From a virus, in IMG/VR virus record IMGVR_UViG_2928611649_000001, positions 1-64,000 of that record: a stretch of 64,000 bases of DNA; one strand, 5' to 3'. The notes below the pieces were generated by a model. It was not told where the DNA came from, ran no database searches, and saw only the letters and a list, made by a program, of their open reading frames with translations. The translations under genes and the position numbers were made by a program. This document shows positions 3,734 through 39,455 of the stretch, one piece after another (positions within the stretch are counted from its first letter, which is position 1; the number at the start of each line of letters is the position of its first letter).

Positions 3734-3961
3734 TCAATTCTCCAAAACAGTTATGTCGCATGGGCGAACCGGCCCGGCGATGCCTTCCAGGTAGACGATC
3801 ATTTCCTCGTCACCCTTGTGCCAGCAGAAGCCGGCGATGAAGTACTTCAGGCCGCGGTACAAGACAGGCCGGCATTTCTGCTTGGCGCGGTGGATGCGCA
3901 TGTCGTGCTGCTCGACCAGGTCGCGCGGCGTCTCGACCGGCACCTGGTCGCGGGCGCTCAT
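3734..3961 (-). CDS. Hypothetical protein
   Basis: 75-aa ORF coupled to upstream and downstream genes. Confidence 0.3.
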   Translation of the reverse strand: MSARDQVPVETPRDLVEQHDMRIHRAKQKCRPVLYRGLKYFIAGFCWHKGDEEMIVYLEGIAGPVRPCDITVLEN

Positions 3962-4077
3962 GCCGCAGCCCAGATGCCGGCCACCATGCCGACAATGAAC
4001 ATCACGATCAGGGCGAGGGCGATGCGGGCCGCGTCAGGGCTGCGCTCGGCGTTCGGTACTTCGTCGTTGTCGGTCAT
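3958..4077 (-). CDS. Small membrane protein (39 aa, MTDNDEVPNAERSPDAARIALALIVMFIVGMVAGIWAAA)
   Basis: ATGA overlaps at both ends and a single hydrophobic helix. Not in the ORF track (<60 aa). Confidence 0.3.
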   Translation of the reverse strand: MTDNDEVPNAERSPDAARIALALIVMFIVGMVAGIWAAA

Positions 4078-4784
4078 GGTGTCACCCGACGAAATTCCAC
4101 GCACCAGACCCATGGGTTGTCCGCCCAACTACCCTCGCCGTTGATCTGCTCCCACAGCTGGCGGTAGGCGTTCACCGCCATCGACTCGCTCGGCGGGAAC
4201 GTCAGCTTCATACCGATGGCGACCGGTGTCAGGCCAATTCCCTCGGCCACTGCATCGATGTCGCTGATGTCATTCAGCCGCTCCGCGCGCACGCTGATGA
4301 TCTCCAGCAGGATGCGGCTGGCCCAGCGGGGCATGTGAATGCTTGGCGTCACCTTTGCGCTTGCACTAAGCAGCGCTGCGGCGCGCGAACATCCTTCCAC
4401 ACTGTAGCTGGCGCCGGGTGCGCGGGTGCGCTCAACCCAGTATTGGCCGGTTTCCGGTGTGACTGGCACGTCATGTCGGAACAGGCCACGCTGGTCACCA
4501 CTGCCGGCGAGCATTGAGCGAATACCGCTTTCACGCACCCATAGGCGATCGCCAGGCTGGCCGTATGGGAACTTACGCCCCTGAATCTCATCCGACGCGC
4601 CGAAAATCTCCGAGCCCGGCGCTTCATACCCGCCGTTTTTGATGACGGTAGGATTGTAGAGCCCGACGGTAGGGTTCCAGTATGGCCCAGGGTCTGGCTT
4701 GACGATTCGCCGCGTCTGCGTCTTGCTGCCGTCGAGCAGTGCGCGGACCATCGGCGAGGAGAACAAAATTGGCCGCTCTTTCAT
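4074..4784 (-). CDS. Conserved phage protein (MKERPILFSSPMVRALLDGSKTQTRR family, ASCH-like)
   Basis: 236 aa. The N-terminus matches a widespread prophage protein family. Confidence 0.45.
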   Translation of the reverse strand: MKERPILFSSPMVRALLDGSKTQTRRIVKPDPGPYWNPTVGLYNPTVIKNGGYEAPGSEIFGASDEIQGRKFPYGQPGDRLWVRESGIRSMLAGSGDQRGLFRHDVPVTPETGQYWVERTRAPGASYSVEGCSRAAALLSASAKVTPSIHMPRWASRILLEIISVRAERLNDISDIDAVAEGIGLTPVAIGMKLTFPPSESMAVNAYRQLWEQINGEGSWADNPWVWCVEFRRVTP

Positions 4785-5155
4785 GCCGCCACCTCGATCA
4801 GTTCCATCCGGATGCTGACCTCGTTATCGAAGTCTATCCGGTCGGCGCTCACCAGCTTGATGCCGTCCGATCCGTCCAGCAGCGGCCAACCTTCAACACC
4901 TTGCACGGCGAACTCGTGCACCGCGCCAAGGCCGCTGGAGATTTCTTCCGCCAGCGCCCGGCGGCAAAGCATGTTGAGCACAGCGACCACAACATCGTCG
5001 TCTGCTTCCGCCAGCCGGTCGTCGGCGCCGCTCCAAAACTCGTTAATCAGCGTGCACAGGGCGATCATCTCGTCGCTCTCAGGCGCGCGCACGTCGACGA
5101 CGACATCGCTACAGGTATCGTCGAAGGTAAGGGTGTATCGGGCCCAGGTAATCAT
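4781..5155 (-). CDS. Acidic hypothetical protein
   Basis: 124 aa, in-operon coupling. Confidence 0.4.
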   Translation of the reverse strand: MITWARYTLTFDDTCSDVVVDVRAPESDEMIALCTLINEFWSGADDRLAEADDDVVVAVLNMLCRRALAEEISSGLGAVHEFAVQGVEGWPLLDGSDGIKLVSADRIDFDNEVSIRMELIEVAA

Positions 5156-6330
5156 GCTGCCACCCCGGCCACGTTCGCCACCACGTAGACGCCCTGCGTG
5201 CTGCCGACCACGTCGGCGGCTTCCATGGCCTGCAGCAGGCTGGAGGCCCGGTTGTAGGTAATCCGCAGCACGCGCTGCACCAGCGATATCGACGCGCGGT
5301 CCTGCTCTCGCACCAGCGCCACGGCGGCCGGGTACAGTGGGTCGGTGGCACTGCCATCGCCATCCGGGATACCACCCAGCCGCATCACTGCGCGCTGCGG
5401 CTGCACCGGCTCGTCGCCGGCCGCCGGCCGCGTCACCGGAGGCTCGCCCTCAGCCACGCCGCCCAGCGCCTCGACCAGGTCCGCCAGCAGCTTGGCCAGC
5501 TCGCCGCTGACCAGCGCGAAGTCGCCATCGAAGCGCTCAGCGTCGTCCTTGGCGTAGTTTTTCTCCGTCAGCACATCCAACAGCTTCACCGACTTGACGG
5601 CCAGGCTCTGGTCCAGCACGAAGCTGATCTTGCTATCCCATGTCATGGCCAGGCGGATGCACTGCTTCCCGGCGGCGATGTGGCGGCGCAACTCGTCCGC
5701 CTCGAGCGTGTGGCGCTTCCACTGCACCTGGGCCTTGCTCTCGCCGGTCGCCTGCAGGGTGGCGTCCATGTCGACCGTGAAGCCGGCTGGCGCATCGTCC
5801 GCCTGCAGCCACTCGGTCATCACGCCCACCGGTGAGCGCTGCACGCGCAAGCTCTCGACCGGGAACTTGTCGACGGCCTTGAGCAGCAACCTGATGACCT
5901 GGTCCGCCTTCGCCGGGCTGGCCGCGCCCACCACCAGCCATCCGTTGACCGGGTCGATCCAGACCCAAGTGCTGTCGCGCTTGGGGAATGCGCGCGGCAG
6001 CAGTTCGTCGGCGACGCGCTCGCGCAACTCCTTCATCGCCTTCTTGCCGGGCGCGAAGCCTTGCGCTTCTTCCATCTCGGCGGCGCGCGCCTTCGTCACC
6101 TGGTTGATGACGGCCGCCGGAAGCACCTTGGACTCGGTCGTGAGCTTCAGCAGGAACTGGCCGTTGATGACGTGGACCAGCTCGCCGGCCGGGCGCGGCG
6201 GCTCCCAGCCCTCGCGCAGCAGTTCGTTGCTGCCGGCCGGCGCGAAGGCCTGCTGCGCCAGCATGCGGTTGAGGGACTCGGCCGAAGTCAGGAAGCCGGG
6301 CAGGCGGTACATCTGAAGATTCTTAAACAT
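5152..6330 (-). CDS. rdgC: RdgC-like recombination-associated protein fused to a C-terminal FtsK-gamma winged-helix domain
   Basis: The N-terminus MFKNLQMYRL... is RdgC-like over ~300 aa. The C-terminal ~60 aa (DPLYPAAVALVREQDRASISLVQRVLRITYNRASSLLQAMEAADVVG) matches the FtsK gamma KOPS-binding domain. Confidence 0.6.
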   Translation of the reverse strand: MFKNLQMYRLPGFLTSAESLNRMLAQQAFAPAGSNELLREGWEPPRPAGELVHVINGQFLLKLTTESKVLPAAVINQVTKARAAEMEEAQGFAPGKKAMKELRERVADELLPRAFPKRDSTWVWIDPVNGWLVVGAASPAKADQVIRLLLKAVDKFPVESLRVQRSPVGVMTEWLQADDAPAGFTVDMDATLQATGESKAQVQWKRHTLEADELRRHIAAGKQCIRLAMTWDSKISFVLDQSLAVKSVKLLDVLTEKNYAKDDAERFDGDFALVSGELAKLLADLVEALGGVAEGEPPVTRPAAGDEPVQPQRAVMRLGGIPDGDGSATDPLYPAAVALVREQDRASISLVQRVLRITYNRASSLLQAMEAADVVGSTQGVYVVANVAGVAA

Positions 6331-7513
6331 GGTCAGCCTTTTGTTGGGTTGGGGAAGGGCGGCGATAGGTTTTGGTTAGGCCGCCGTTGACGCTGTGGCC
6401 GCGCCGGAGTACTGCGCGCGCCAGCGCCGCCCGGTCGCTGCGGCTGCTGAGCGACTGTCCGAGCAGGCCGAAGTAGCTGTTGGCGGATGCGAACACCTCG
6501 TCGGCGTCGATGCGAAGCACGCGGTTGACGGCCTGGCGGACGGTGCGGCGCCGGGTGCGCGTGTTCCATGGCTTGATGACGTGGCCGACGAAGTCGATCC
6601 CGCGCGCGACCGGCTGCAAGATGGTCTTGGTCGGGTTCAGGTTCGCGTGCAGCACGCCGGGCAGGAAGGTGTTGATGTCCGTCAGCGCGGCGTTCAGCCA
6701 CTGCGGCGACTCGTGCAGCAGCACGAAGTCATCCACGTAGCGGATGTAGTGCTGGGCGCGCACGCGGTGCTTCACGTGCTGGTCCAGCGCATCGAGGTAG
6801 ACGTTCGCGAAGAACTGTGATGACAAATTCCCGATGGGAAGTCCGCGGTGGGCCGGGTGGTTGGCCAGCCGCTTGTGCGCCGGAACCAGCGCCAGCAACT
6901 CCGGCGCGCCGCGCAGTTCGAAGTTCTCACGAGGGTCATGGAACAGAATGGTTTCGGCCAAGGCCAGCCACCAGGGCTCCGTGATCCGCGCCGCCAGCTG
7001 GCCGTGCAGCACTGCCTTGTCGATGGCGACGAAGAAGTTGGCGAGGTCGCATTTCAGATACCAGACTGGCTTCGACCAGTTCTGGCTGATGCTGCGCACT
7101 TTCGCCTCCAGGCGGCCGGCGGCGTACAGCGTGCCACGGCCCGGGATGCATGCGCAGGTATCTGGAATGAATGAGGCGTAGAAGCGCGGCGCCACGTGGT
7201 TGTACAGCACATGGTGCACGATACGGTCGGGGAAGTCAGCAGCCCAGACCTCGCGCGGCTTGGGGCGGGTGACGATAAAGCAGACCGAGGTGCCGGGCTT
7301 GTACGAGCCGTCGATCAGTTCGTCGTACAGCTGGATCAGGTTGCGCTCAAGGTCCTGCTCGAACACGAGAGCGCTGGGGGTATTGCGCTTGTGGCGCCGG
7401 CAGTCGAAGTACGCGACTACCAGCTCCTCAAAAGAGAAGTCTGCATCGGGTTGATCTGCGGACGGCGCGCGCGGCGCCGGCATACGACTTGTGGTTGTTG
7501 TTCTGGTTGCCAT
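6323..7513 (-). CDS. Diversity-generating retroelement reverse transcriptase
   Basis: 396 aa. It has the YVDDFV catalytic box and LPIGNLSSQFFANVYL (the DGR-specific SQ in place of QG in motif 4). It lies directly downstream of avd and the TR. The annotated start overlaps the TR 3' end. Confidence 0.85.
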   Translation of the reverse strand: MATRTTTTSRMPAPRAPSADQPDADFSFEELVVAYFDCRRHKRNTPSALVFEQDLERNLIQLYDELIDGSYKPGTSVCFIVTRPKPREVWAADFPDRIVHHVLYNHVAPRFYASFIPDTCACIPGRGTLYAAGRLEAKVRSISQNWSKPVWYLKCDLANFFVAIDKAVLHGQLAARITEPWWLALAETILFHDPRENFELRGAPELLALVPAHKRLANHPAHRGLPIGNLSSQFFANVYLDALDQHVKHRVRAQHYIRYVDDFVLLHESPQWLNAALTDINTFLPGVLHANLNPTKTILQPVARGIDFVGHVIKPWNTRTRRRTVRQAVNRVLRIDADEVFASANSYFGLLGQSLSSRSDRAALARAVLRRGHSVNGGLTKTYRRPSPTQQKADHV

Positions 7514-7562
7514 TGTCGAAGTTCTGGTTCCAAGCGTTAGTCGGGTAGTCGGCGTGCTGCGT
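7454..7562 (-). repeat. DGR template repeat (TR), ~107-109 bp, AAC-rich on the coding strand
   Basis: The coding strand reads CAGCACGCCGACTACCCGACTAACGCTTGGAACCAGAACTTCGACAATGGCAACCAGAACAACAACCACAAGTCGTATGCCGGCGCCGCGCGCGCCGTCCGCAGAT. It matches three VRs, with mismatches almost exclusively at TR adenines. Confidence 0.85.
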
Positions 7563-8093: not shown

Positions 8094-8113
8094 GGGTTCC
8101 TTAAATTACTAAA

Positions 8114-8524
8114 TTACTGAATTGGCAATCTGCGGACGGCGCGCGCGGCGCCGGCATACGACTTGCGGAGGTAGTTCTGGTAGCCATCGTAGAAGTACTG
8201 GAGCCAAGCGTTAGTCGGGTAGTCGGCGTGCTGCTCGCAGGACCAGTAGTAACGTGGCTTGAAGTGCGACTTCAGGTTGGCGATCAGCAGGCTCTGCTGA
8301 CGACGAGTGGGCAGTACGCCGCCGTTCTTCTCGGCCCACGCCATCGACTTGTCCCAGTCCGCATCCAGCAACTCGCCCGGCAGCAGGAAGACATGCTCAT
8401 CTGGTGCGCCGTTCTCGCCCAGCAGCAGACCGGAGTAGGTCTCGCCCGGTTTCAGGTTCTCTACCAGAAACTGGCGCTTGCTCGCCGCCATCAGCGATTC
8501 GATTTCTGCGGTATTCGATTGCAT
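8114..8524 (-). CDS. DGR target protein 1 (C-type lectin / DUF1566-like fold), VR at its 3' end
   Basis: Start trimmed to MQSNTAEIESL, which has an AGGAGA RBS; the ORF track gives 8114..8713. The C-terminus LPTRRQQSLLIANL...YWSCEQHADYPTNAWLQYFYDGYQNYLRKSYAGAARAVRRLPIQ is encoded by VR1. Confidence 0.7.
   Translation of the reverse strand: MQSNTAEIESLMAASKRQFLVENLKPGETYSGLLLGENGAPDEHVFLLPGELLDADWDKSMAWAEKNGGVLPTRRQQSLLIANLKSHFKPRYYWSCEQHADYPTNAWLQYFYDGYQNYLRKSYAGAARAVRRLPIQ
8128..8234 (-). repeat. DGR variable repeat VR1
   Basis: 10 mismatches to TR. 9 are at TR adenines; 1 is a G-to-T (GAC to TAC). Confidence 0.8.
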
Positions 8525-8541: not shown

Positions 8542-9003
8542 TTAGCCGCGTGGCGGCGATTCGTGAAATTCGACGCCCATCTGGCCGCCAAACGCGTGAA
8601 TCTGTTCCATGTACTGGGCGAAGCCCTTGACCGTCAGGTCGGTCGAACTGCCGATCAGCACCGGCTGGCCGCCCGGGTCGAAGTCCCACTTGCGGTACTT
8701 CTCGTCCTTGCACAGCTCCGGGTCATATTCATCCGGCAGGAACTGCTGCTTGAAGTACTCGTGCCAGATTTCGGCGCTGTACTGGCGCTCGTCGCTCCAG
8801 CACTGCTCGGCGATGTCCTTTAGCGGCCCAGCCCACATACGGGCATTCTGGTCAAGCTTCCGCGCCTTCACTTCCTCGCGCACCAGCAACTCCAGCGGGC
8901 GCTCAGCATCCAGCGGCACGTTGCGGAGCAGGGCGATTGCGCGATCAACCTGCTCCTGGCCGCGCAGCAGCAACTTGCGCTGCTCGAACTTCTGGCGGGT
9001 CAA
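8542..9003 (-). CDS. ninB: NinB/Orf-family recombination mediator
   Basis: LDQNARMWAGPLKDI and IHAFGGQMGVEF align with lambda NinB (LDQNRKLWA ... IQAFGTERGVKW). Confidence 0.7.
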   Translation of the reverse strand: MTRQKFEQRKLLLRGQEQVDRAIALLRNVPLDAERPLELLVREEVKARKLDQNARMWAGPLKDIAEQCWSDERQYSAEIWHEYFKQQFLPDEYDPELCKDEKYRKWDFDPGGQPVLIGSSTDLTVKGFAQYMEQIHAFGGQMGVEFHESPPRG

Positions 9004-9031: not shown

Positions 9032-9661
9032 TCATGCTGGCACCGCCTCGGCCGCCGGCTGCTTGGCCGCGTCGTACTTCTCGATGCCCCAGGCTAGTGC
9101 GTAGCAGCACCAGACGATGCTGTGCGTGTACTCGGTCATGTCGTTCTCGAACAGATCGGTGAACGTCCAGCCATACGGGCGCTTCGGGTTGCTGCGCGGA
9201 TCGTGGCAGAAGTCGTAGGCAGCGTATTGAGCGCGGTCGCCGCCGTCCTCCAGCATGCGTAATACCTCATCGTCCACCGCTTCCCAAAGTTCACGGCGCC
9301 CAGCCTTGTCGAGTGCGCCGCTTTCCTTCGCGCTGCGCATCCAGCCGATGCGGTAATCATTGATGACGCGCTTGAACTTGGCCTCATCGAACTGCTTGAC
9401 CTTGCCTCCACCCCGATTGCCATCGACAGCGATCAGCTTCTCGGTCCAGTAGCCCAGGTTGATGCTCAGCGATCCATCAGCGCGGCGCGGCTTGCGGAAG
9501 AACTCGAACATGTCCGCCGTGCGCTCGAACACGTAGGTACCCATGTCGCCTGTGTAGCAGAGGTGGCCGGGCCAGGTGATCAGGTCGAAGTACTGGTTGC
9601 TCGTGCCCGGCTCCTTGAAGCGGACGTGGCGGCCCACACCGTCGTCGCGGATCACGATCAT
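9032..9661 (-). CDS. Hypothetical phage protein
   Basis: Start trimmed to MIVIRDDG. The upstream part of the track ORF is an Arg-rich GC artefact. Confidence 0.4.
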   Translation of the reverse strand: MIVIRDDGVGRHVRFKEPGTSNQYFDLITWPGHLCYTGDMGTYVFERTADMFEFFRKPRRADGSLSINLGYWTEKLIAVDGNRGGGKVKQFDEAKFKRVINDYRIGWMRSAKESGALDKAGRRELWEAVDDEVLRMLEDGGDRAQYAAYDFCHDPRSNPKRPYGWTFTDLFENDMTEYTHSIVWCCYALAWGIEKYDAAKQPAAEAVPA

Positions 9662-16470: not shown

Positions 16471-16501
16471 ACTGGCTCCGGATCAGTTTTAAATTACTGA
16501 A

Positions 16502-17134
16502 TTACTGAATTGGCAATCTGCGGACGGCGCGCGCGGCGCCGGCATACGACTTGTGGTCGTTGCCCTGGCCGCCATTGTCGAAGACCTGGCCCCAAGCGCC
16601 AGCCGGGTAGTCGGCGTGCTGCGTGCTCGACCAGTACCACTCGTCGTCATCGAAGGCATCAGCGCCGCCGGCGCGGAAATTCTCGACCGTGGTCTGCATC
16701 GGTGATTCATCGGTGTAGGCGGTGCCCACTGGCAGGCTGCCCGGGTTCACGCCATCGATGCCATCGGCGTAGTTCTCGCGGTCGGTCGGTTTCAGGTGGC
16801 GGTATTGCAGCTCCTGCTGGTCGCGCGCCGGGATTGACCAGTCGCTGAAGCCGTTAGTCGTCAGCGCCAGGACGGCCAGCGCCAGTTCGCTGCCGGCGGC
16901 GGCCATGGCTTGGGTGTTCGACAGGCCGTCGGTGCGGCTCATGGCGCCAGCAACCAGGTCCAGCGACTCGTTCCATTTGCCGCGCAGCTCACCGGTAGCG
17001 CCGGCCGTGACGTTCGCGAACATCTGCCCGTTCTCGATCGTGATGCCGGTGAAGTAGCCGCCTTCGAGCGGTGCGCCGATGGCGGGGAGGGCGGAAGCTG
17101 CGAAGACTGGTGCTGCGGCGAGTGCTTGGTTCAT
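16502..17134 (-). CDS. DGR target protein 2 (DUF1566/C-type-lectin-like), VR at its 3' end
   Basis: 210 aa. WSIPARDQQELQY...EWYWSSTQHADYPAGAWGQVFDNGGQGNDHKSYAGAARAVRRLPIQ shares the C-terminal scaffold with target 1. Confidence 0.65.
   Translation of the reverse strand: MNQALAAAPVFAASALPAIGAPLEGGYFTGITIENGQMFANVTAGATGELRGKWNESLDLVAGAMSRTDGLSNTQAMAAAGSELALAVLALTTNGFSDWSIPARDQQELQYRHLKPTDRENYADGIDGVNPGSLPVGTAYTDESPMQTTVENFRAGGADAFDDDEWYWSSTQHADYPAGAWGQVFDNGGQGNDHKSYAGAARAVRRLPIQ
16516..16624 (-). repeat. DGR variable repeat VR2 (remote, ~9 kb from the TR)
   Basis: 12 mismatches to TR, all at TR adenines. Confidence 0.8.
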
Positions 17135-22686: not shown

Positions 22687-22974
22687 ATGAACCACACCAT
22701 CAACCGCAAGCCCGACCCCCGCCTGCATCCCGTCAAGGTCTACCTTGGCGAGGAGGAGTTGGCGACCCTGCAAAGCCACTGCCATGCGATCGACACCACT
22801 TGCAGCGCTTTCCTCCGCAAGGTCGGCCTTCGTATCGCGTCAGCACACCAGCAGGTTATCCGCTACCCCGGGCGCCGTGAAGGTCCGAGTGCAGGCCTGG
22901 GCAGGGCCTTCTCGTTCCCGGGGCAGGGCGCCCGGCGCGTGCAGCGCGGCGCGTTGCGGCCGATGCGTTCCTGA
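22687..22974 (+). CDS. Ribbon-helix-helix-like regulator (VYLGEEELATLQSHCHAIDTTCSAFLRKVG)
   Basis: GGAG RBS. MobC/TraJ-like RHH pattern. Confidence 0.4.
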   Translation: MNHTINRKPDPRLHPVKVYLGEEELATLQSHCHAIDTTCSAFLRKVGLRIASAHQQVIRYPGRREGPSAGLGRAFSFPGQGARRVQRGALRPMRS

Positions 22975-23020
22975 AATAACCCGATCCGTACCGACCGGGC
23001 CACCAATCGATAGGGCTTCC

Positions 23021-23752
23021 ATGCGCCACCTGATTTCCACCGCAGCACTGATCATGACCAGCCGTGAAATTTCTGATCTTGTTGAATCACGCCACGACAA
23101 CGTGAAAATTGCCATTGAGCGGCTTGCTCACCGTGGCGTGATTCAACTTCCTGCAATGCAGGACGTCAAAAACGGCCAAGGCCAGACGGTGACTGAATAC
23201 CACATCGGAAAGCGCGACAGCTACGTCATCGTCGCGCAGTTATCGCCGGAGTTCACAGCGCGGCTAGTCGATCGCTGGCAGGAACTGGAGGCGGCGGTCA
23301 TCGCGCCGGCGGCGCCGGCCGAGCTGTCGCGCATGGAGTTGATCGAGCTGGCCATGGCCGCCGAGCGTGAGCGCCTGATGCTGGTGGCGCAGGTCGCCGC
23401 CGACGCGCCAAAGGTTGCCTTCGCTGAAGCGGTGCGCAACGTCGATGGCCTGTGCAGCTTGGAGAAGATCGCCAAGACGCTGGGCTGGGGCCGCAACCGC
23501 TTCATCGCGGCGCTGAAGGAGGCTAAGGTTTTGCAGGCCTCGCGTATCCCGTACCAGAAATACATCGAGCGCGGCTACTTCGAAGTAGTCGAGCAAACGC
23601 CGTGGGAGGACTCGAAGGGCGATTCGCACGCGTCGTTCACCACGATGGTCACCGGCGCCGGCCAGGTCTGGCTGGCGAAGAACTTCCAGCATGAGCGCCA
23701 CGTTGCGGCGCAGATGGCCGCCATCGGTACCACGCTCGTCGCCGCCCACTGA
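23021..23752 (+). CDS. Antirepressor (Rha N-terminal domain + KilA-C domain)
   Basis: LIMTSREISDLVESRHDNVKIAIERL is Rha-like. DGLCSLEKIAKTLGWGRNRFIAALKEAKVL is KilAC-like. Confidence 0.65.
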   Translation: MRHLISTAALIMTSREISDLVESRHDNVKIAIERLAHRGVIQLPAMQDVKNGQGQTVTEYHIGKRDSYVIVAQLSPEFTARLVDRWQELEAAVIAPAAPAELSRMELIELAMAAERERLMLVAQVAADAPKVAFAEAVRNVDGLCSLEKIAKTLGWGRNRFIAALKEAKVLQASRIPYQKYIERGYFEVVEQTPWEDSKGDSHASFTTMVTGAGQVWLAKNFQHERHVAAQMAAIGTTLVAAH

Positions 23753-24075: not shown

Positions 24076-24591
24076 ATGGATCACGCAGACGTACTACACA
24101 TCATCGAAGACCGCACCTTCACCGCGAAGATGGGCGAGCGCACCATCACCGGCCTGATGGTCGAAAGCACCTGGAACGGGCTGACGAACTACACCGCCGC
24201 CAACGGTGCGAACCTGGTGGTGCTGGACGCCGAGCGGCGCGTGGTCACCGGCAGCGCCGCGCTGCTGGTCCACTTGGGCCTGGGCGAGCCGCAGATCGGC
24301 GCCGAGTTCAGCGGCGGCATCTACGCCGGCCTGACCGAGGTTGACGGCAAGCCGGCGCGCCTGATCATGTTGCTTCCGCACGCCGTCGATGTGTCGTGGG
24401 ATACCGCGATGGACTGGGCGAAGCTGCAAGGCGGCCACCTGCCTACGCGCGCCGAGCAGCGCACTCTCATCGAGAACGTGAAGAGTCACTTTGAGCCCCG
24501 TTGGTATTGGTCCTGCGACCAGCACGCCGACTTCCCGTCTTACGCTTGGCTCCAGCTCTTCGGCAATGGCTACCAGGTCAGCTACCACTAG
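24076..24591 (+). CDS. DGR target protein 3 (DUF1566/C-type-lectin-like), truncated by a TAG stop inside VR3
   Basis: Start at MDHADVLHII with a GGAGA RBS. C-terminus LPTRAEQRTLIENVKSHFEPRWYWSCDQHADFPSYAWLQLFGNGYQVSYH*. The downstream frame continues SYAGAARAVRRLPI. Confidence 0.65.
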   Translation: MDHADVLHIIEDRTFTAKMGERTITGLMVESTWNGLTNYTAANGANLVVLDAERRVVTGSAALLVHLGLGEPQIGAEFSGGIYAGLTEVDGKPARLIMLLPHAVDVSWDTAMDWAKLQGGHLPTRAEQRTLIENVKSHFEPRWYWSCDQHADFPSYAWLQLFGNGYQVSYH

Positions 24592-24625
24592 TCGTATGCC
24601 GGCGCCGCGCGCGCCGTCCGCAGAT
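24520..24625 (+). repeat. DGR variable repeat VR3 (remote, ~17 kb from the TR, opposite strand)
   Basis: About 14 mismatches to TR, all at TR adenines, including AAG to TAG (Lys to stop). Confidence 0.8.
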
Positions 24626-24660
24626 TGCCAATTTAATCATTCAGTAATTTAGAGGACAAG

Positions 24661-26880: not shown

Positions 26881-27224
26881 CGCGCATCGTAAAAATATTC
26901 CCTCCGGCCGGTAGCCGCTCGCGCGCGTTGCTCATCGCACTTCAGCAAGGCCCTGGCACCTTCTACCAGGTGTGCGAGCGCGCCAACTTCGACATCGAGG
27001 ACTCCCGCCTTGAACTGGCCCTGCGCCACATCTTCGACCACATGATCGGCGGGAACGTGAGCTTGCGCGGCCTGACCTATTCGCTGACCGAAGATGCACG
27101 GATCTCGTTGGGCGAAGCGCCACCCGCGCCGTACGTTGGTCAGGTGGCCGGCCCAGCCTATCGAGGCACCGCCTATACCGCGCCCGTCAAGATTGCGCGC
27201 CGCGCTGCTGGAGCACACGCATGA
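26877..27224 (+). CDS. Hypothetical protein
   Basis: 115 aa, coupled to the methyltransferase gene. Confidence 0.4.
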   Translation: MTRIVKIFPPAGSRSRALLIALQQGPGTFYQVCERANFDIEDSRLELALRHIFDHMIGGNVSLRGLTYSLTEDARISLGEAPPAPYVGQVAGPAYRGTAYTAPVKIARRAAGAHA

Positions 27225-29617
27225 AGCGCGACGACTTCAATTTCGATCTGCTGCTGGGCGACCTTGCGGCGGGCGCGTCGACGCCGGTTCCAACGTCTCG
27301 GCCAGCAGGACCTCGTTCGCCGCGGCGCGTGAAGCGCGACTTCCTGACGCCGCAACTGGACCTGGGTCATGAGTTAATCATAGACAACTTTGCAGGCGGT
27401 GGCGGGACCAGCACCGGCCTGGAAGAAGCATTCGGCCGCCCGGTGGACATTGCGATCAATCACGACCCCGAAGCCCTGGCGCTGCACGCCATGAACCACC
27501 CGCTCACGAAGCACCTATGCGAGAGCGTTTGGGACGTCGACCCGATCAAGGTGACGAACAACCAGCCGGTCGGCTTGGTCTGGTTGTCGCCGGACTGCAA
27601 GCACTTCAGCAAGGCCAAGGGCGGCACACCAGTGGCAAAGAACATTCGCGGCCTGGCCTGGGTGACGCTGCGTTGGGCGGCGAAGTGCAAGCCGAGGGTG
27701 ATCATGCTGGAGAACGTCGAGGAGTTCAAAACTTGGGGGCCGCTGCTGGTGGACGCCGAGGGCAACTTCCGTCCAGACCCCTCGAAGAAGGGCAGGACGT
27801 TCGAAAGCTTCCTGCGCCAGCTGCGCGGCCACGGCTATACAGTCGACCACAAAGAGATGCGCGCCAGCGACTACGACACCCCGACGATCCGCAAGCGATT
27901 CTTCCTGGTTGCGCGGCGCGATGGCCTGCCGATCCGTTGGCCCGTGCCGACGAATGGCGCACCGACGTCCGCCGGCGTCCTGGCCGGTAACCTCGCGCCC
28001 TGGCGCACGGCCGCCGAGTGCATCGACTGGACCATCCCGTGCCCTAGTATCTTCGAACGCAAGCGGCCGCTGGCCGACGCCACACTGCGCCGCATCGCCA
28101 AGGGCATCCAGCGCTACGTGGTGGACGCGGAGACGCCGTTCATCATCGGGCAGGGCGGTCCGATCTATTCCGGCAAGCCGGTATCGGCCGATCAGCCGTT
28201 CGGCACGCTGACAACCGAGAATCACCGCGCCCTGGTCGTGCCCAGCATCGTACCGGTCACGCACCAGGGCGGCGACCGCAGCGAATCGGTTCATGAGCCG
28301 TTCCGCACAATCACCAGCGCCCAGCGGGGCGAGAAAGCGCTGGCCGTGGCCACGCTGGTGGATGCCGCGCACGGCGAGGTTTCGCCGAGCGGCGTCAAGC
28401 GCTGGGGGCCCGGCTGCAAGGATATTTCTACGCCACTCGGGACGGTGACGGCATCTGGCGGCAACGCAGCGCTGGTGACGGCATTCTTGAACGAACACGC
28501 CAATTCCAGCAATCAGCGCACGATGCCCGCCGACGAGCCGTTGCGCACCATCTGCGCCCAGGTCAAGGGTGGTCACTTCAGCGCCGTCTCCGCGACGCTA
28601 GTGGGCGTGGGCGGCCGTGCTGGGGAAAGCCGACCACGTGGCGCTAACGAGCCGGCGGCGACGATCACTGCGAAGGGCGATACCGCGATCGCCACTGCCT
28701 TCTTGGCGAAGCACTACACCGGTGTCGTTGGCTCTGATCTGGAAGACCCTCTCGGTACTGTGACCAGCTGCGACCACCACAGCCTGATAACTACACACAT
28801 CCAGCGCGACATGGGGCGAAGCGTCGGGCACCCTGCTGATGTACCGTTGGCAACCGTGACAGCTGGGGGCGGCGGAAAGGCGGCGTTGGTATCCGCTCAC
28901 ATTACCAAGTTCCGTACCGGCGCCACCGGCAGCGACATGAACTTGCCAGTGCCGACGATCACGGCGGGGCCCAAGGAGAACCCGGCCGGCGCACCGCACG
29001 CGCTGGGCATCGTCACCGCGCACATCGAGGCGATGTATTCGCAGAAGGGCGACGAATCACGCGGCCAGGACGCGCGCGAGCCGATCAAGACCGTCACGGC
29101 CAGCGCCCAGCACGCGGTGATGACCAGTAGCCTTGTGAAGCTGCGTGGCACCAGCAGCACGGCCAGTATGGATGAGCCGCTGCACACGGTCAGCGCCGGC
29201 GGCCAGCACCACGCCGAGGTGCGTGCCTTCTTGCTTGCGTACTACGGTACCGATCAGGACCAGTCGCCGAATTCGCCGCTGGCCACCGTGACGAGCCGCG
29301 ACCGCTTCGGCCTGGTTACCATCCAGGGCGTCGACTACCAGATCGTCGATATCGGTCTGCGCATGCTGGAGCCGGCCGAACTGTACCGCGCCCAAGGCTT
29401 CCCTGCCGCCTACGTGATCCGCGAAATCCCGGACCCGAAGCTGCTGTTCAAGGATGGGCATCAGGCCGATGGTAACCCATTGGATCTGCCGCGCGTGCCG
29501 CTGACGAAATCAGCCCAGGTGCGGATGTGCGGCAACAGCGTTTGTCCGCCGATGGCGCGGGCGCTGATCCAGGCGAACTTCATGCACGAGCGCGAGATGG
29601 GGACGGTCGCAGCATGA
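27221..29617 (+). CDS. DNA (cytosine-5)-methyltransferase with a greatly expanded target-recognition region (11 tandem TRD-like repeats)
   Basis: Motif I DNFAGGGGTSTG. PC motif PDCKHFSKAKG. ENVEEF is present. The C-terminal RMLEPAELYRAQGFPAAYVI matches the motif IX/X region. Between them are ~500 aa of repeats of the form (D/E)xPLxTVTAxGGxxALV. Confidence 0.8.
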   Translation: MKRDDFNFDLLLGDLAAGASTPVPTSRPAGPRSPRRVKRDFLTPQLDLGHELIIDNFAGGGGTSTGLEEAFGRPVDIAINHDPEALALHAMNHPLTKHLCESVWDVDPIKVTNNQPVGLVWLSPDCKHFSKAKGGTPVAKNIRGLAWVTLRWAAKCKPRVIMLENVEEFKTWGPLLVDAEGNFRPDPSKKGRTFESFLRQLRGHGYTVDHKEMRASDYDTPTIRKRFFLVARRDGLPIRWPVPTNGAPTSAGVLAGNLAPWRTAAECIDWTIPCPSIFERKRPLADATLRRIAKGIQRYVVDAETPFIIGQGGPIYSGKPVSADQPFGTLTTENHRALVVPSIVPVTHQGGDRSESVHEPFRTITSAQRGEKALAVATLVDAAHGEVSPSGVKRWGPGCKDISTPLGTVTASGGNAALVTAFLNEHANSSNQRTMPADEPLRTICAQVKGGHFSAVSATLVGVGGRAGESRPRGANEPAATITAKGDTAIATAFLAKHYTGVVGSDLEDPLGTVTSCDHHSLITTHIQRDMGRSVGHPADVPLATVTAGGGGKAALVSAHITKFRTGATGSDMNLPVPTITAGPKENPAGAPHALGIVTAHIEAMYSQKGDESRGQDAREPIKTVTASAQHAVMTSSLVKLRGTSSTASMDEPLHTVSAGGQHHAEVRAFLLAYYGTDQDQSPNSPLATVTSRDRFGLVTIQGVDYQIVDIGLRMLEPAELYRAQGFPAAYVIREIPDPKLLFKDGHQADGNPLDLPRVPLTKSAQVRMCGNSVCPPMARALIQANFMHEREMGTVAA

Positions 29618-39288: not shown

Positions 39289-39376
39289 GGAAGCATGGCT
39301 GAGAGGCCGAAAGCAACGGCTTGCTAAGCCGCACGCTCGCAAGGGCGCCCAGGTTCGAATCCTGGTGCTTCCGCCA
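39289..39376 (+). tRNA. tRNA-Ser (anticodon GCU), type II with a long variable arm
   Basis: GGAAGCA...TGCTTCC acceptor stem. CCAGG-TTCGAAT-CCTGG T arm. Anticodon loop TTGCTAA. 3' GCCA. Confidence 0.7.
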
Positions 39377-39381
39377 GTTTT

Positions 39382-39455
39382 GCGGGTGTAGCTCAATGGC
39401 AGAGCTGACGCTTTCCAAGCCTATGACCAGGGTTCGATTCCCTGTACCCGCTCCA
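39382..39455 (+). tRNA. tRNA-like, probable tRNA-Gly (UCC) with an imperfect anticodon stem (possibly degenerate)
   Basis: GCGGGTG...TACCCGC acceptor stem. CAGGG-TTCGATT-CCCTG T arm. Loop TTTCCAA. The anticodon stem GACGC/GCCTA pairs at only 3 of 5 positions. Confidence 0.45.

Follow-up and report, generated by a model that had tools for sequence, protein, structure and literature searches.

A DGR with three targets in a Duganella prophage

We analysed a window of 64,000 nucleotides (positions 1 to 64,000 of IMG/VR record IMGVR_UViG_2928611649_000001) and identified a complete diversity-generating retroelement (DGR) within a prophage of Duganella violaceipulchra, made up of a reverse transcriptase (RT), an Avd-like gene, one template repeat (TR) and three variable repeats (VRs; Table 1). 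Between 8524 and 6323 on the minus strand the components follow the canonical DGR order of target 1, Avd-like gene, TR and RT, and each of VR1 to VR3 forms the end of a small gene for a DUF1566/Lcl_C C-type-lectin-like protein. The RT matches Pfam RVT_1 at 52.4 bits (cut-off 29.6). The Avd-like protein is matched over its full length by both Pfam bAvd (E 1.6e-9, 38.6 bits, just below the cut-off of 40) and NCBIfam DivGenRetAVD (E 1.7e-15, 57 bits, below the cut-off of 80) and is encoded in the canonical place between target 1 and the TR; the assignment is significant, though under both curated thresholds, and we count Avd among the components present. The two in-frame ATGs of the RT gene (7513 and 7483) both fall within the TR, which overlaps the 5′ end of the RT gene (7454-7513, minus strand), so that the GC-rich invariant segment also codes for the RT N-terminus.

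Table 1 Features of the DGR and of the truncated target gene in the window
Feature	Position	Strand	Basis or remark
DGR reverse transcriptase	6323..7513	-	Pfam RVT_1; IGNLSSQ and YVDD motifs
TR core, 30 adenines	7454..7559	-	repeat alignment; AAG at 7490..7488
Avd accessory protein, 119 aa	7734..8093	-	Pfam bAvd, NCBIfam DivGenRetAVD
Target gene 1, full length, 136 aa, ending ...RKSYAGAARAVRRLPIQ	8114..8524	-	repeat alignment, Pfam, AlphaFold, Foldseek
VR1	8233..8128	-	AAG at 8164..8162
Target gene 2, full length, 210 aa, ending ...HKSYAGAARAVRRLPIQ	16502..17134	-	repeat alignment, Pfam
VR2	16621..16516	-	AAG at 16552..16550
Target gene 3, truncated, 171 aa, DUF1566/Lcl_C-type	24076..24591	+	ORF from ATG 24076, Pfam match
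VR3 core, 106 nt homologous to TR	24520..24625	+	repeat alignment
Premature TAG codon in VR3	24589..24591	+	aligns with AAG (Lys) of TR, VR1 and VR2
Orphaned in-frame tail, SYAGAARAVRRLPI, then original TAA at 24634-24636	24592..24636	+	translation
VR-specific AT-rich 3′ flank of VR3, AGATTGCCAATTTAATCATTCAGTAATTTAG	24622..24652	+	flank alignment; putative IMH-like target-recognition element
AT-rich flank after VR1	8131..8098	-	flank alignment; equivalents in L002 and L019
AT-rich flank after VR2	16519..16486	-	flank alignment; equivalents in L002 and L019

The target proteins behave like members of the Lcl_C/DUF1566 family and are related to it, although the Pfam gathering threshold of Lcl_C (PF07603, 34.9 bits) is not reached by target 1 (23.2 bits), target 2 (29.8 bits) or target 3 (17.9 bits). 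The match extends to position 117 of the 117-position profile in targets 1 and 2 and to position 102 in target 3. NCBI names the target proteins DUF1566, many of their homologues carry precomputed PF07603 hits, and the fold predicted for target 1 matches the PDB entry 8q4e. No obvious signal peptide was seen in the three proteins when read by eye. Located on both strands, their genes are spread across some 16.5 kb within the early region of the prophage (window 5152-29617) and are not tail-fibre genes; among their neighbours are genes for an RdgC-like recombination protein (5152-6330), NinB (8542-9003), the anti-repressor Ant (22745-23752) and a large DNA methyltransferase (27221-29617).

The 3′ ends of the VRs carry two kinds of shared sequence. 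A 35-mer occurs in exactly three copies in the window, at 24598-24632 (+), 8121-8155 (-) and 16509-16543 (-), none being expected by chance, with a shorter fourth copy at about 7454-7559 (-), that is in the TR; the GC-rich 34 nt that follow the TAG codon in VR3 are identical in the TR and in all VRs. An AT-rich flank then follows all six VRs of two Duganella prophages and is absent after the TR. Its consensus is AGATT-N3-CAATTCAGTAATTCAGTAATTTA(A/G), with a tandem TCAGTAAT motif, and it includes the natural stop codon; the copy after VR3 shows lineage-typical differences. No sequence was conserved beyond it in the flank alignment. It is probably a VR-specific targeting (IMH-like) element. All of the DGR features open to testing were found at this locus, namely the RT, TR/VR pairs, Avd, C-terminal VRs and a GC-rich segment joined to a VR-specific 3′ element.

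A nonsense codon at a TR adenine in VR3

VR3 differs from the other repeat copies in carrying a stop codon where they carry Lys. The plus strand at 24580-24600 reads AGC TAC CAC TAG TCG TAT GCC, the in-frame TR reads AAC AAC AAC CAC AAG TCG TAT GCC, and at the codon pair of the stop site VR1 has CGC AAG, VR2 CAC AAG and VR3 CAC TAG. The TAG is in frame with the ORF of target 3, for which the ATG at 24076 is the likely start, and the protein ends ...GNGYQVSYH*, whereas those of VR1 and VR2 terminate in ...KSYAGAARAVRRLPIQ. Target 3 therefore lacks its last 15 residues, K plus the 14 encoded in frame behind the stop. The identities of the TR and the three VRs, the conversion of AAG to TAG at an adenine of the TR, the protein end ...VSYH and the 14 residues left behind the stop had all been proposed in an earlier note on this DNA, and the repeat alignment and translation bear them out. 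Within the observed mutagenised zone AAG is the sole codon convertible to a stop by one adenine substitution. The GC-rich invariant segment lies 8 nt downstream of it. An AGA codon further 3′ sits at the boundary of TR/VR homology, and its first adenine is unaltered in 33 of 33 related VRs.

We assessed the TAG allele from assemblies and protein records. In an independent Logan assembly of run SRR15045043 an 8-kb contig runs from VR3-specific sequence into CAC TAG TCG and breaks 28 nt later, inside the shared repeat. The identical 171-aa protein is on record as MBV6321941.1 and MCP2007065.1 in GenBank and as a RefSeq WP record, under the name 'DUF1566 domain-containing protein [Duganella violaceipulchra]'. 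TAG is absent from every other repeat copy in the window (TR, VR1 and VR2), so the stop was not borrowed by mis-assembly between repeats. Sense alleles may nevertheless be present in the culture as a minority.

Comparison of the 106-nt core, with its 30 TR adenines, showed that differences between the TR and the VRs fall almost exclusively on adenines. All 14 mismatches of VR3 lie on TR adenines (hypergeometric P about 1e-9), as do all 12 of VR2 and nine of the ten of VR1, giving 35 of 36 across the three VRs. The T of the TAG is among the 14 adenine-templated changes of VR3, a pattern far beyond chance. The sole non-adenine difference in the window is a G to T at 8191 (-) in VR1, where the TR has GAC and VR1 TAC, which hints at some time having passed since the last homing into VR1. 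Between the two sister prophages the VRs differ at adenine positions, lending indirect support to the view that mutagenic homing may be ongoing in the D. violaceipulchra prophage.

Relatives of target 3 carry a sense codon at the site. The closest relative is a syntenic prophage in Duganella sp. BJB475 (loci L002, L003 and L019), whose orthologue of target 3, P0002 (186 aa, 81 % identity), reads CTC AAG TCG and ends ...KSYAGAARAIRRSFI. Nine further protein homologues and L034, the one extra locus retrieved by a metagenome scan (sense AAG), also have Lys followed by the tail, so that all 11 full-length relatives found (184-213 aa) retain Lys where the earlier note had suggested looking for sense codons. 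P0010 (168 aa), from the soil catalogue entry SRR5471030_2033565, ends exactly one residue before the conserved Lys; it comes from a protein-level assembly with no DNA on record and may represent a second, independent Lys-to-stop allele. Exact-pattern scans of viral contigs and of genome contigs for the invariant 3′ segment gave no match, nor did a protein-pattern scan of genome contigs, and blastn against GenBank phages returned weak matches only, to Burkholderia phages at about 70 % identity over the VR.

We assembled a set of 19 related DGRs, 17 of them viral-contig loci found with the RT as bait and two found via a target search, and paired each TR with its own VRs. Sixteen of the 17 viral-contig relatives have an upstream TR and adenine-mismatched VRs, while in the remaining one (L026) no VR match was found; over 45 TR/VR pairs there were 558 adenine mismatches vs 31 non-adenine mismatches. 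An in-frame AAG is present at the equivalent site in most of the 19 TRs, several of which have hypervaried AAC on both sides. The 36 VR codons that lie opposite a TR AAG in these DGRs comprise 31 AAG, three GAG, one ATG and a single TAG, which is that of VR3 in the window. The site is thus changed in VR2 of the BJB475 prophage (TR AAG, VR2 GAG, an adenine to G) and in three more relatives, and together with the 14 adenine-templated differences this gives strong support to the origin by mutagenic homing claimed in the earlier note. In related DGRs of the same RT clade (L017, L023, L032, L033, L005 and L008) three or four VRs per TR are common. The VRs of L017 lie at 3861-3967, 4545-4653, 8580-8688 and 9255-9363, and in the first of these 6 of 19 mismatches are non-adenine, which suggests that it may belong to a decaying target.

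Stops at this codon were rarer than expected. In a slightly narrower count of 34 TR-AAG/VR codons the first adenine was changed in 12 % for AAG vs 68 % of VRs for AAY (Fisher P 1e-10), and the first adenine of AAY became T in 22 % of VRs. Had AAG changed as AAY does, and without selection, about 7.6 of the 34 codons should have become TAG; one was seen (P = 0.002), and stops are about 7-fold rarer than expected in the related elements. This depletion is consistent with purifying selection against both stops and the loss of Lys. The reduced change at AAG may also partly reflect an intrinsic bias of the RT rather than selection, because the BPP-1 enzyme converted AAG or AAA to a stop in about 1 % of cDNAs vs the 6-7 % expected under uniform misincorporation (PMC12875486).

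Other origins for the TAG fare less well against these data. An ordinary spontaneous A-to-T point mutation arising after homing, independently of the retroelement, is very unlikely: no single substitution can be assigned to a mechanism with certainty, and VR1 does contain a non-DGR change, but the VR3 core has zero non-adenine mismatches in 106 nt, the site is DGR-mutable in four relatives, and a DGR RT would turn AAG into TAG in something of the order of 1-20 % of events, many orders of magnitude above the spontaneous rate. The four near-identical repeat copies, with 34 identical nt after the TAG codon and a short-read contig that breaks within that shared segment, could invite a sequencing or assembly artefact. 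Mis-joining of repeats was rejected, however, since it could not import a codon found in no other copy and since the Logan contig joins VR3-unique sequence to the TAG; given also that the 171-aa protein is present in two GenBank submissions, we regard an artefact as highly improbable. It is scarcely credible that the TAG is read through or recoded and a full-length 186-aa protein still made. The tail behind the stop is in frame and undamaged, but an intact tail is expected in any case from a TR-templated segment, and P0002, the orthologue in the sister prophage, itself naturally ends in TAG. Stop-codon reassignment or suppression was likewise rejected, as TAG is an ordinary stop in the window, where it ends 13 of 53 long ORFs, and no suppressor tRNA was found there, the only tRNAs being tRNA-Ser (GCT) and tRNA-Gly (TCC). 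The two tRNA genes adjoin each other at 39289-39455 (+) and may be phage-encoded or mark an attachment site. That the TAG of VR3 is a DGR-generated nonsense allele is thus strongly supported: the stop is templated by a TR adenine, the remaining differences of VR3 are confined to adenines, orthologues are full length, and the tail is intact and in frame.

Truncation of target 3 and its possible reversal

The consequences of the stop were evaluated from a family alignment of 88 sequences, using the residue numbering of target 1, and from structure prediction. The residue at the stop site is Lys in 66 of the 88 family members and V, T, R, I, E, L, Q or N in the other 22, so that the Lys position itself is not essential and only the tail downstream of it is. 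The tail, ...(R/A)ARAVRRLPI, is found in 88 of 88, with A127, R128, V130, R131 and R132 invariant or nearly so. Among related TRs the Arg and Ala codons of the tail vary synonymously, which argues that its conservation is at least partly at the protein level and does not only reflect a need for the DNA in homing.

The AlphaFold model of target 1, built on the same alignment, reached a pLDDT of 96.2 and a pTM of 0.87; the Lys is residue 121, and strands at 125-127 and 130-134 lie after it. The best Foldseek match of this model in the PDB was the C-terminal domain of Legionella Lcl (8q4e, E 1e-4), with domains of C-type lectins ranking next. For P0002 the model was unusable (16-sequence alignment, pLDDT 46), and a PDB sequence search with this protein gave nothing significant. 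By homology to its paralogue target 1, truncated target 3 is predicted to lack the final two β-strands of the C-type-lectin-like fold. The N- and C-terminal strands of this fold pair with each other at the domain base. Because the last strands would be lost together with this pairing, we consider the truncated protein probably unstable or inactive, as judged from the paralogue model and the conservation of the tail, and the VR3 allele would most likely be null.

The stop lies in a part of the gene that homing may renew. In the BPP-1 system cDNA integration begins at the boundary between the GC-rich segment and the IMH and always rewrites the 3′ end of the VR. If the same holds here, the TAG would date from the last homing into VR3 and would be replaced in the next round, in most cases by a sense codon. 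The RT, Avd and TR are intact, as are the GC-rich segment and the VR-specific 3′ flank, and VR3 is free of non-adenine decay; by analogy with BPP-1 it is plausible that a later round of homing could repair the stop. We propose that a TR transcript is reverse-transcribed with random misincorporation opposite adenines and that the cDNA replaces the VRs at the 3′ ends of the three paralogous DUF1566/Lcl_C genes. During the most recent homing into VR3 the first adenine of AAG would have been copied as T, giving TAG. With the stop inside the segment that homing overwrites, the next homing into VR3 would most likely restore a sense codon, and the null allele may persist meanwhile because the prophage is silent (repressed) and selection on target 3, which has two paralogues beside it, is weak. 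Taken as a whole, this account, in which DGR homing made the TAG and the resulting allele is likely null and likely repairable, is in our judgement highly probable.

A different view of the same event is that the truncation is a selected or tolerated OFF state, with a stop-prone Lys kept in the TR as part of a DGR-driven phase variation. Most of the 19 related DGRs keep AAG in their TR, P0010 stops at exactly the same residue, and the tail and all cis elements are intact behind the stop. Lys, however, has only the codons AAA and AAG, so any TR that needs Lys is stop-prone by necessity, and the depletion of TAG, one in 34 against about 7.6 expected, is the signature of purifying selection and not that of a switch in use; the stop of P0010, moreover, is a putative one, deduced from a protein-level soil assembly. 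We therefore regard an OFF state as unlikely. The further proposal that the conserved Lys (AAG), placed where the mutagenised zone ends on its 3′ side, is a built-in reversible OFF switch, acting on top of diversification, seems distinctly unlikely. Were it true, one of the paralogous targets would be silenced via TAG in a few percent of homing events and reactivated by a later one, and P0010 would be another instance of such a switch.

Comparison with known DGRs

The element resembles the DGR of Bordetella phage BPP-1 (brt, avd, TR and the mtd VR) in its order of target, avd, TR and RT, in the adenine-specific differences between TR and VR, in having the VR at the C-terminus of a protein with the C-type lectin fold and in the GC-rich invariant segment at the VR 3′ end followed by a VR-specific flank. 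It differs in having three targets, two of which lie 8 and 16 kb away and one of which is on the opposite strand, in the overlap of its TR with the start of the RT gene, and in that no BPP-1-like GC-rich hairpin is apparent downstream of the Duganella VRs in the flank alignment read by eye. The Duganella targets are also small DUF1566 proteins encoded in the prophage early region, whereas the BPP-1 target is a tail-fibre receptor-binding protein.

In its target domain class the element is like the Legionella pneumophila DGR with LdtA (DUF1566 / CLec2 'category d', PMC5758913), and the best PDB match of the target 1 model is likewise a Legionella protein domain. Short proteins with DUF1566 as their only domain make up about half of the category d targets (Wu et al. 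2018, PMC5758913). Unlike LdtA, a surface lipoprotein, the Duganella targets lack an obvious signal peptide by eye, and they score below the Pfam gathering threshold of Lcl_C. We place the Duganella element among the DUF1566/CLec2 category d DGRs (Wu et al., PMC5758913).

The use of one TR for several dispersed targets is shared with the Treponema denticola DGR of TvpA and its paralogues (PMC4891356), although the targets of the latter have FGE-sulfatase-type CLec domains, are mostly lipoproteins and are chromosomal, whereas those of Duganella lie in a prophage. Lys codons of the Treponema TR are hypervaried, and the authors noted this as an escape from the AAY stop-avoidance rule; truncated 'suspicious' targets were listed for the same DGR, and no specific truncation was traced to a TR adenine (PMC4891356).

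It is a standard statement of the literature, stressed in DGR reviews, that placing TR adenines in AAY codons prevents nonsense outcomes. Stops in VRs are not mentioned by Roux et al. 2021 (PMC8144416), and DGR surveys drop targets with premature stops (PMC5758913); surveys and annotation pipelines that do so may discard recently active elements. The conversion of AAG to a stop by a DGR RT has been both predicted and quantified, in vitro and in E. coli (PMC12875486), so the case of VR3 is not a new mechanism. The stop in VR3 is a natural example of this predicted and measured side effect of DGRs, and involves no new kind of system. The Duganella locus provides a clean natural counter-example to the AAY rule, in which one Lys codon of the TR yielded a self-inflicted nonsense allele, and the related elements supply natural data, on a small scale, on what Lys in a TR costs, which complement the recent measurement on the BPP-1 RT.
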